Positions 40,854 through 40,933 of a stretch of DNA of 64,000 bases are shown here, piece by piece (the first letter of the stretch is position 1; every line of letters starts with the position of its first letter). The stretch is from a virus. Location: IMG/VR virus record IMGVR_UViG_3300006028_000011, positions 18,239 through 82,238 of that record, one strand, 5' to 3'. A model generated the notes under the pieces. It was not told where the DNA came from. It worked only from the letters and a program-made list of their open reading frames with translations, and made no database searches. A program made the position numbers and the translations under genes.

Positions 40854-40933
40854 GACCGCCGCCGCTCGGGGCGGGCGAGGAGGGCCGAAGCCCTCCTCGC
40901 ACCTCCACCGAGCATGGCTGCGGGGGTGAGGTC
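40854..40933 (-). ncRNA. Putative structured RNA element, copy 2 (cUUCGg tetraloop)
   Basis: Stem GCGAGGAGGGC-TTCG-GCCCTCCTCGC within outer GCTCGG/CCGAGC and CCGC/GCGG pairings; duplicate of 24673-24751. Confidence 0.6.

Follow-up and report, generated by a model that had tools for sequence, protein, structure and literature searches.

The window, a 64,000-nt stretch of DNA (bases 18239–82238 of an 82,238-nt IMG/VR phage record with 72% G+C and a 90-nt terminal repeat), contains two copies of a hairpin element of approximately 80 nt. All genes neighboring both copies are encoded on the minus strand (Table 1).

Two copies of a hairpin element in a phage genome

Copy 1 is located 1.0 kb downstream of the start of a Cro/C1-type HTH gene and inside an open frame, in agreement with the first-pass annotation, which had placed it about 1 kb into a cro-like operon within a small ORF. 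The interval between the HTH gene and copy 1 comprises a small frame, a LuxR-type gene, and a 61-aa frame. In the 78-aa frame spanning copy 1, a strong third-position GC signal was present only in the part downstream of the element, and the frame matched no Pfam family. No homologues were found for residues 31–78 of this frame, the part downstream of the element, and no empty site could therefore be demonstrated. The gene downstream of copy 1 likewise matched no Pfam family; it probably starts near 24228, judging from its alignment to a 134-aa homologue in another phage (G406), which begins at residue 51.

Copy 2 had been assigned to the leader of an operon ending in cas12, and we found it in a stretch of approximately 0.9 kb that lacks a coding signal and separates a regulator gene from that minus-strand operon, whose first ORF begins approximately 430 nt downstream of copy 2. 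This stretch is a gap in an otherwise tightly packed genome and contains further G+C-rich hairpins, e.g., around 40731–40755 and 40678–40705. Neither promoter-like nor terminator-like sites were predicted near the copies (24000–26200 and 40000–41600) in a scan based on an E. coli-type consensus, which may miss actinobacterial signals. The phage record also encodes two tyrosine recombinases, at G000:C1:17734–18273 (plus strand) and 24936–25469 (minus strand), corresponding in window terms to the bases from just before the start to position 35 and to 6698–7231; the first shares 43% identity with an integrase located 1.5 kb from the element of phage G403.

Table 1. Features at the two element copies of the window and records of other phages carrying the element
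Feature	Position or length	Strand	Remarks
Element copy 1 (81 nt modelled)	24673–24753	-	5' tail, long irregular hairpin, tip g-GCAA-c; 100 bits
Copy 1, apical 11-bp stem and tetraloop	24693–24718	-	plus-strand loop TTGC (24704–24707), GCAA on minus strand
Element copy 2 (81 nt modelled)	40855–40935	-	anatomy as copy 1, tip c-UUCG-g; 100.5 bits
Copy 2, apical 11-bp stem and tetraloop	40875–40900	-	plus-strand loop CGAA (40886–40889), UUCG on minus strand
Unnamed gene downstream of copy 1	23707–24378	-	listed ORF 223 aa; G406 homologue 40%, E 4e-29
78-aa open frame spanning copy 1	24532–24768	-	ATG overlaps TGA of preceding 61-aa frame (ATGA 24765–24768)
LuxR-type gene between HTH gene and copy 1	24944–25312	-	GerE 23.3 bits, just below Pfam cut-off of 23.5
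Cro/C1-type HTH gene, first of copy 1's operon	25491–25766	-	Pfam HTH_3
TnpB-like Cas12 gene, operon end after methyltransferase	36281–37963	-	Cas12f1-like_TNB 55 bits
Stretch of ~0.9 kb without coding signal, holds copy 2	40428–41327	-	no third-position GC signal
419-aa HTH (XRE-type) regulator	41328–42587	-	392 nt upstream of copy 2; weak TPR match
G405 counterpart of 419-aa HTH regulator	L110:1775–3007		among the few genes common to both phages
IMG/VR phage G403	89.8 kb		one element copy
IMG/VR phage G404	70.5 kb, terminal repeat		one element copy
IMG/VR phage G405	65.5 kb		one element copy
IMG/VR phage G406	53.2 kb, terminal repeat		one element copy

A repeat search of the window returned a 74-nt direct repeat (24678–24751 and 40860–40933) with 91% identity and a spacing of 16,182 nt, and a covariance model lengthened both copies to 81 nt. 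No third copy was found in the 82,238-nt record by either BLAST or the covariance model. Pairwise alignment with 100-nt flanks demonstrated that the similarity of the two copies starts and stops abruptly and includes uninterrupted identical runs of approximately 36 and 25 nt, and that the differences comprise a block of six consecutive tip bases, one G/A exchange within the 5' tail, and a short indel close to the 3' boundary. The repeat search, the alignment, and RNA folding bore out the original description of a near-identical hairpin pair differing mainly at the tip; the two minus-strand tips that it had named (Table 1) were seen in the alignment, and its outer stems GCUCGG/CCGAGC and CCGC/GCGG were found in both copies. 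Each copy is an imperfect palindrome over its full length, with terminal inverted repeats running from GACC to GGTC. The minus-strand RNA of each copy had a predicted folding energy of -57.2 kcal/mol (z = -5.25 for copy 1 and -5.06 for copy 2), and none of 200 shuffled sequences folded as stably.

Further copies in phages and metagenomes

JGI metagenome contigs were scanned with an apical-stem pattern that left the six central nt free, which yielded 54 loci. Three of these (L061, L067, and L071) were true copies, in which the 40 nt before and the 20 nt after the stem also matched; the other 51, matching in the stem alone, were dropped as chance hits. When IMG/VR was scanned for either the conserved 5' portion or the basal stem, four additional phage records were retrieved (G403–G406), each with a single copy as compared with two in the window, and four other pattern hits (L111, L112, L116, and L117) were rejected as chance matches. 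No hits were obtained in IMG/VR with patterns in which the apical stem or the 3' flank had to match exactly. Thus, seven DNA copies were found beyond the window, for a total of nine, and a covariance model built from seven copies scored the nine at 48–103 bits on the sense strand. Two more copies, in P0001 and P0003, were seen as translated ORFs alone when the ORF spanning copy 2 served as the query of a word search; a C-terminal likeness between P0001 and P0002 noted by eye was not confirmed by BLASTP.

The searches of other collections were negative. None of 21 hits of the apical-stem pattern in 185,579 species genomes had the flanks of the element, and BLAST gave no match in PLSDB or among 401 Actinomycetota genomes. 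No INPHARED phage matched window positions 22000–28000, and the window proteins flanking the element retrieved no relatives from IMG/VR.

Comparison of the nine DNA contexts showed a sharply bounded imperfect palindrome of approximately 80 nt with sharp ends and unrelated flanks in every copy. No flank similarity was detected at the nucleotide level among seven contexts, and ORFs of the contigs carrying L061, L067, and L071 matched the phage only inside the element. The five phages share between zero and nine ORFs pairwise and none in common, and the conservation of the element exceeds that of any protein common to these phages.

An Rfam search, which the first-pass annotation had proposed, gave no match at the gathering score for the window, L095, L096, or L071. 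At E-values up to 10, nothing credible appeared, the best being ROSE (21 bits; cut-off 45) and BASRCII26 (E 0.0098, 19.4 bits; cut-off 218). No published description of the element was found by sequence string or by keyword on actinobacteriophage stem-loop repeats. The best reading, as far as Rfam and this limited literature search show, is that the family was previously undescribed: a compact RNA motif absent from Rfam, supported by covariation, and preserved nearly letter for letter in phages with few common genes.

The element was frequent in termite-mound and soil metagenomes. A 931-nt leader query was recovered nearly whole in one rhizosphere run, probably the source of the record, and approximately 5% of its words were present in 11 runs from six other studies, covering termite gut, termite mound, and soil. 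No RNA run was among those listed as containing the query. When contigs of four runs (X2, X5, X7, and X9) were compared with positions 40700–41100, the cover was confined to 40855–40933, which is exactly the element, with 2–12 matching contigs per run and approximately 20 different loose ends. Several loose ends had a G+C content much below that of the phage, and in three loose-end contexts (runs X2, X7, and X9) the sense strand passed straight from the element into a U run. Unitigs ended at both borders of the element, which indicates that the same variant occurs in several contexts within one sample. Single 31-mer unitigs reached depths of 65–300 as compared with 2–35 for flanked contigs, these being summed unitig depths of contigs rather than of reads. 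Since a depth of 300 in a run of 1.42 billion letters roughly equals the number of 5-Mb genome equivalents there, the carriers would be either multi-copy or very abundant, and the multi-context unitigs at depths of 50–300 in X5 and X7 suggest multi-copy carriers. Several carrier contigs of the four runs shared a short box, AAGCTTCCGAAAG, on the sense strand approximately 15 nt upstream of the element, together with the U run just after it; in those metagenome carriers, the element may belong to a larger unit that is conserved as a whole.

The same contigs bear on where the two window copies came from. Two contigs from X5 and X7, with lengths of 75 and 71 nt, had no differences from copy 2 over 72 and 71 nt, respectively (40860– or 40861–40931), and a 982-nt contig had one. 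In the alignment of DNA copies, copy 1 differed from L061 in two columns and copy 2 differed from L067 and from G403 in four columns each, whereas the two window copies differed from each other in seven. The tip swap in place between local duplicates that the first-pass annotation had implied is thus not supported, with each copy closer to other records than to its partner and copy 2 matched exactly in other runs. Local duplication inside the phage with subsequent compensatory evolution of the tip would suit a genome with just two copies in direct orientation and 91% identity, but we consider it very unlikely; besides the distances and the exact matches in contigs of other studies, both tip types recur elsewhere (GCGA in L061; UUCG in L067, G405, and G406). 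Because of the difference matrix and the exact matches to copy 2 in other studies, two acquisitions are favored over duplication and compensation, and we infer that the phage gained its copies separately, from sub-lineages with GCRA and UUCG tips.

Fold, strand, and position of the element

The element forms one long irregular hairpin of approximately 27 pairs with a 12-nt C-rich 5' tail and a paired but variable apical stem. Across the nine copies, 96.3% of 240 pair cells formed standard pairs as compared with 47–57% when the 3' partners were slid by one to three columns; the alignment was fitted to a model from seven of these nine related sequences and favors the structure, and the slid controls are the fairer comparison. 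Double changes occurred in seven of the 27 pairs as compared with zero to two after sliding, and none of 500 shuffles reached the observed value of any of five measures. Within the 27-pair consensus, the main helix of 23 pairs was paired in 98.5% of cells. Most double changes were contributed by the rewritten apical stems of G404 and G405 and by the closing pair, of which four types occur; the apical stem of G406 is approximately seven pairs longer. In the basal half, comprising 23 nt of the 5' arm and 12 nt of the 3' arm, eight of nine copies were identical and L067 deviated at two adjacent bases.

The stable RNA tetraloop classes GNRA, UNCG, and CUUG account for 13 of the 256 possible tetraloops. 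On the sense strand, the tips were UUCG in four copies (copy 2, L067, G405, and G406) and GCAA, GCGA (L061), GAGA, CUUG, and GUCC in the others, so that eight of nine belonged to these classes on the sense strand and none of nine on the antisense strand; the copies are not independent and represent five different stable loops. Wobble pairs (U-G and G-U) were also found on the sense strand, and folding energies did not discriminate between the strands. Selection on RNA structure had been proposed on first reading of the window, with an absence of covariation in homologues named as evidence to the contrary. The covariance model across phages revealed doubly changed pairs instead, and the helix kept by double changes in nine copies, the sense-strand wobbles, and the stable tetraloops on that strand only uphold the proposal. 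These results show that the fold is maintained by compensatory changes and that the constraint is strand-specific, acting on the strand transcribed with the neighboring genes, which suggests that the element matters as RNA.

We also considered whether the element is a repeated coding module, i.e., a common N-terminal peptide (TSPPQPCSVEVRGG..PSSPAPSG) of small phage proteins. Both window copies, L061, P0001, and P0003 can be read through in one frame, which in the window copies begins at an ATGA overlap. The G404 copy, however, carries a TGA inside the frame that the window copies keep open, L071 has a stop just upstream, and the variable block encodes unrelated residues (GN, LR, GD, FR, GP, GY, and RR). 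Given the in-frame TGA in G404 and the unrelated peptides across the apical stem, the constraint is not on protein; the frame of copy 2 moreover showed no coding signal, no Pfam family matched, and a coding module is extremely unlikely.

A downstream gene lay on the strand of the element in seven of nine copies, the other two (L067 and G403) having no callable downstream gene, and no copy was antisense to its neighbor. Every copy in the five phages was located in an early/regulatory (or lysogeny) region, and the placement was non-random. The G405 phage encodes, 2 kb ahead of the element, a regulator with 49% identity to the 419-aa regulator of the window (E 1e-100), and only 2 nt separate the modelled end of the element from the ATG of the gene that opens a same-strand operon. 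The G406 element is found 300 nt past an HTH gene; 12 nt beyond its modelled end comes the GTG of a 99-aa ORF, which is followed by the homologue of the window gene downstream of copy 1. The G404 element begins at the TGA of a gene for a 303-aa secreted-protein-like product and lies in a 3' untranslated stretch. A terminator composed of a hairpin and a U run was seen in G404 (L096:7430–7470) approximately 50 nt past the element, just before the ribosome-binding site of the next gene; the element itself is therefore not the terminator there. The L061 element precedes a FAD-oxidoreductase-like gene, and the G403 element lies in a non-coding stretch, preceded at a distance of 4 nt by a 145-nt folded module ending in CCA.

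A tyrosine recombinase gene was located 1.5–1.8 kb from the element in G403, G404, and G406, with several ORFs between the element and int in G404, whereas the integrase was at least 17 kb from either window copy and at least 14 kb from the element in G405. No significant likeness was found between the G403 HTH protein and the window regulator or between the cro-like genes of the window phage (G000) and G406. A NusG paralogue was absent from four phages, and no tRNA or tmRNA was found in L071, L090, or L091. The early/lysogeny placement fits a regulatory site and also an insertion surviving only in spare intergenic room.

Possible origin and role of the element

The first-pass annotation had suggested that the element co-regulates CRISPR with early genes. 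The CRISPR array (35063–36115) comprises 15 identical 37-nt repeats and 14 spacers of 33–38 nt. No spacer matched more than 18 nt elsewhere in the phage record, the best non-self match being 18 nt at 94% and outside the element, and a search for the complement of the CRISPR repeat (tracrRNA/anti-repeat) found no match in the element and matches of just 8 nt in the leader. These comparisons gave no sign of the element being a CRISPR target or tracrRNA. Four other phages carry the element, and no Cas12f1-like_TNB match above the cut-off was found in two of these, G403 and G404. With no link found on any of these counts, a CRISPR-specific role is not supported, and the presence of two copies in the phage should be read with caution rather than as a purpose-built connection between CRISPR and early genes. 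As direct repeats of 74 nt, the copies are nevertheless a possible route for losing the 16-kb CRISPR-bearing segment.

We consider the most probable reading, with a probability of roughly 0.5, to be a dispersed palindromic element of the REP/Correia/SPRITE kind that would punctuate operon transcripts, in which we infer both the mobility and the effect on RNA. Its sharp borders, unrelated flanks, the occurrence of the same variant in many contexts, and its conservation above that of shared proteins argue for a dispersed, horizontally spreading element, and the distribution is best read as a family dispersed among high-GC temperate phages that otherwise have very little relation to one another, and among further carriers from soil and termite-associated communities. 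The spread would be MITE/REP-like, with the enzyme supplied in trans. Less surely, the co-transcribed hairpin (-57 kcal/mol and approximately two helical turns) would act in cis on mRNA and could be an RNase III-type cleavage site, a block to 3'-exonucleases, or both; the 27 pairs of the consensus compare with the at least ~20 mostly continuous bp of an RNase III-type substrate. The stability and translation of upstream and downstream genes would thereby be uncoupled, with copy 1 separating the cro-like and LuxR-like genes from later genes and copy 2 separating the long leader from the methyltransferase–cas12 operon. If followed by a U run, which is the case in some of the metagenome contexts, the element could serve as an intrinsic terminator; none of the nine DNA copies is followed by such a run. 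Such an element would be a test case of how small structured elements pass from the genomes of phages to those of cells and back, and of their effect on operon expression.

The search for traces of mobility was negative. The Y1 (IS200-like) transposase family PF01797 was found in none of the five phage records, with the control positive in 7 of 14 genomes; no target-site duplication was visible at the nine borders; and no longer element with the same ends, no transposase, and no empty site was found. Against mobility, the single copies in four of five phages, the early/regulatory placement, and the partial synteny with G405 and G406 also fit a dedicated regulatory site, and the near-invariance of the basal half could reflect binding by a factor instead of a constraint tied to mobility. 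A dedicated cis-acting RNA of phage early operons, whose nascent hairpin would use its basal internal loops and C-rich 5' tail to bind RNA polymerase or a conserved host factor and would mediate put/nut-like antitermination, as the first-pass annotation had suggested, or gate translation of the next ORF, is accordingly a possible, if tentative, alternative. It accords with one window copy in each of two early-type operons, the constant location in regulatory regions and on the transcribed strand in five phages, the position of the G403 element behind TTGCGT-N16-TATAAT in a non-coding stretch, the start codons close to the modelled end in G405 and G406, the synteny with these two phages, an invariant basal half beside a covarying apical stem, as in a recognition site, and conservation above that of any protein common to the phages. 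It is weakened by the lack of a predicted terminator-like site near either window copy (in the E. coli-type scan) and by the recurrence of the same variant in many contexts per metagenome run, some with much lower-GC flanks and a U run. The G404 copy in a 3' untranslated stretch before a separate terminator, the L061 copy before a FAD-oxidoreductase-like gene, and a single long hairpin of 27 pairs with a varying tip, which differs from the anatomy of put and nut, also speak against it. With no NusG paralogue in four phages and no gene common to all five, any partner factor must be host-derived.

A related proposal is a portable, self-contained cis-regulatory RNA, whose basal internal loops and C-rich tail would dock with a conserved host machine (RNA polymerase, ribonuclease, or ribosome) and which temperate actinophages would have repeatedly recruited into early operons, here also before the operon ending in Cas12. 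We regard this proposal as doubtful; if it holds, the same control would be imposed in any transcript where the element lands. A site acting at the level of DNA, i.e., a hairpin, cruciform, or core recognized by a recombinase or transposase, such as an att core or a hairpin of single-stranded DNA transposition, is unlikely. Its direct copies could excise the 16-kb CRISPR segment, and the sharp borders, near-identity, and unrelated flanks resemble shared att cores; the window copies have long identical runs in common, tyrosine recombinase genes are nearby in three of five phages, and some metagenome contexts resemble a gene end with a U run. On the other side stand the distance of the integrase (17 kb for copy 1 and no less than 14 kb in G405, with several ORFs before int in G404), stable tetraloops of the RNA type that are confined to one strand, and several G-U wobbles, which would count as mismatches in a DNA duplex. 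In addition, no host locus with the element was found in the species genomes or the 401 Actinomycetota genomes, and the contexts per run are too numerous for a single att site.

The preferred reading, a dispersed palindromic element, can be set against known systems. REPs are 20–40 nt in length, occur in hundreds of copies per chromosome, and are accompanied by RAYT transposases, whereas the present element is approximately 80 nt in length, has a conserved 12-nt tail, occurs in one or two copies per phage, and has no Y1 transposase in the five phages. In the part of Delihas (2011; PMC3184786) dealing with REP/BIME of enterobacteria and pseudomonads, these are short G+C-rich imperfect palindromes in transcribed intergenic regions that can affect mRNA stability. 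The element resembles them in being short, G+C-rich, imperfectly palindromic, and scattered. In Neisseria, the Correia/nemis hairpins are cut by RNase III. SPRITE of Streptococcus pneumoniae is presented in the corresponding part of the same paper as a small dispersed repeat with a long-hairpin, terminator-like transcript (PMC3184786). Like SPRITE and Correia/nemis, the element is small and dispersed, and its transcript folds into a long hairpin; it differs from both in having no sequence relation to them, another host range, no visible terminal TA-type duplication, a location in phage genomes, and flanks of widely differing GC. Rickettsia palindromic elements (RPE) are repeats able to lie in frame within ORFs, according to the portion of that source devoted to them (PMC3184786). 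Copy 1 may similarly sit in frame inside an ORF; RPE are 105–146 nt in length and act at the level of protein insertion, whereas the present family includes a copy with an in-frame stop and is under selection on the fold.

Among phage systems, HK022 put and lambda nut are cis-acting RNAs of approximately 70 nt, present in two copies per phage, one per early operon; put consists of two adjacent hairpins, and nut consists of a single-stranded boxA and a 15-nt boxB with a specific loop. The window phage likewise has two copies, one per early-type operon, but the element is one hairpin of approximately 27 pairs with a freely varying tip, present in one copy in four of five phages and in many non-phage-like contexts. 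RNase III sites of T7, found between its early and late genes, are related hairpins of approximately two helical turns with internal loops, repeated between phage cistrons. The hairpin of the element is of similar length and lies within phage operons; T7 sites show sequence variation and are restricted to T7-like phages, whereas the element is nearly identical across unrelated genomes and is a putative substrate. It also differs from an attP/attB core, given its distance from the integrase in the window genome and the lack of a host locus in the genomes searched.

The surroundings of the G403 element provided a further observation. The stretch at L095:7517–7765 (G403:C1:69516–69764) gave no convincing ORF and no Rfam or tRNA match, and contains a strong promoter-like site (TTGCGT-N16-TATAAT), a hairpin, and then the 145-nt module, which is closed by a perfect helix of 15 bp. 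From its sequence, this phage stretch has the appearance of a polycistronic unit of non-coding RNAs.
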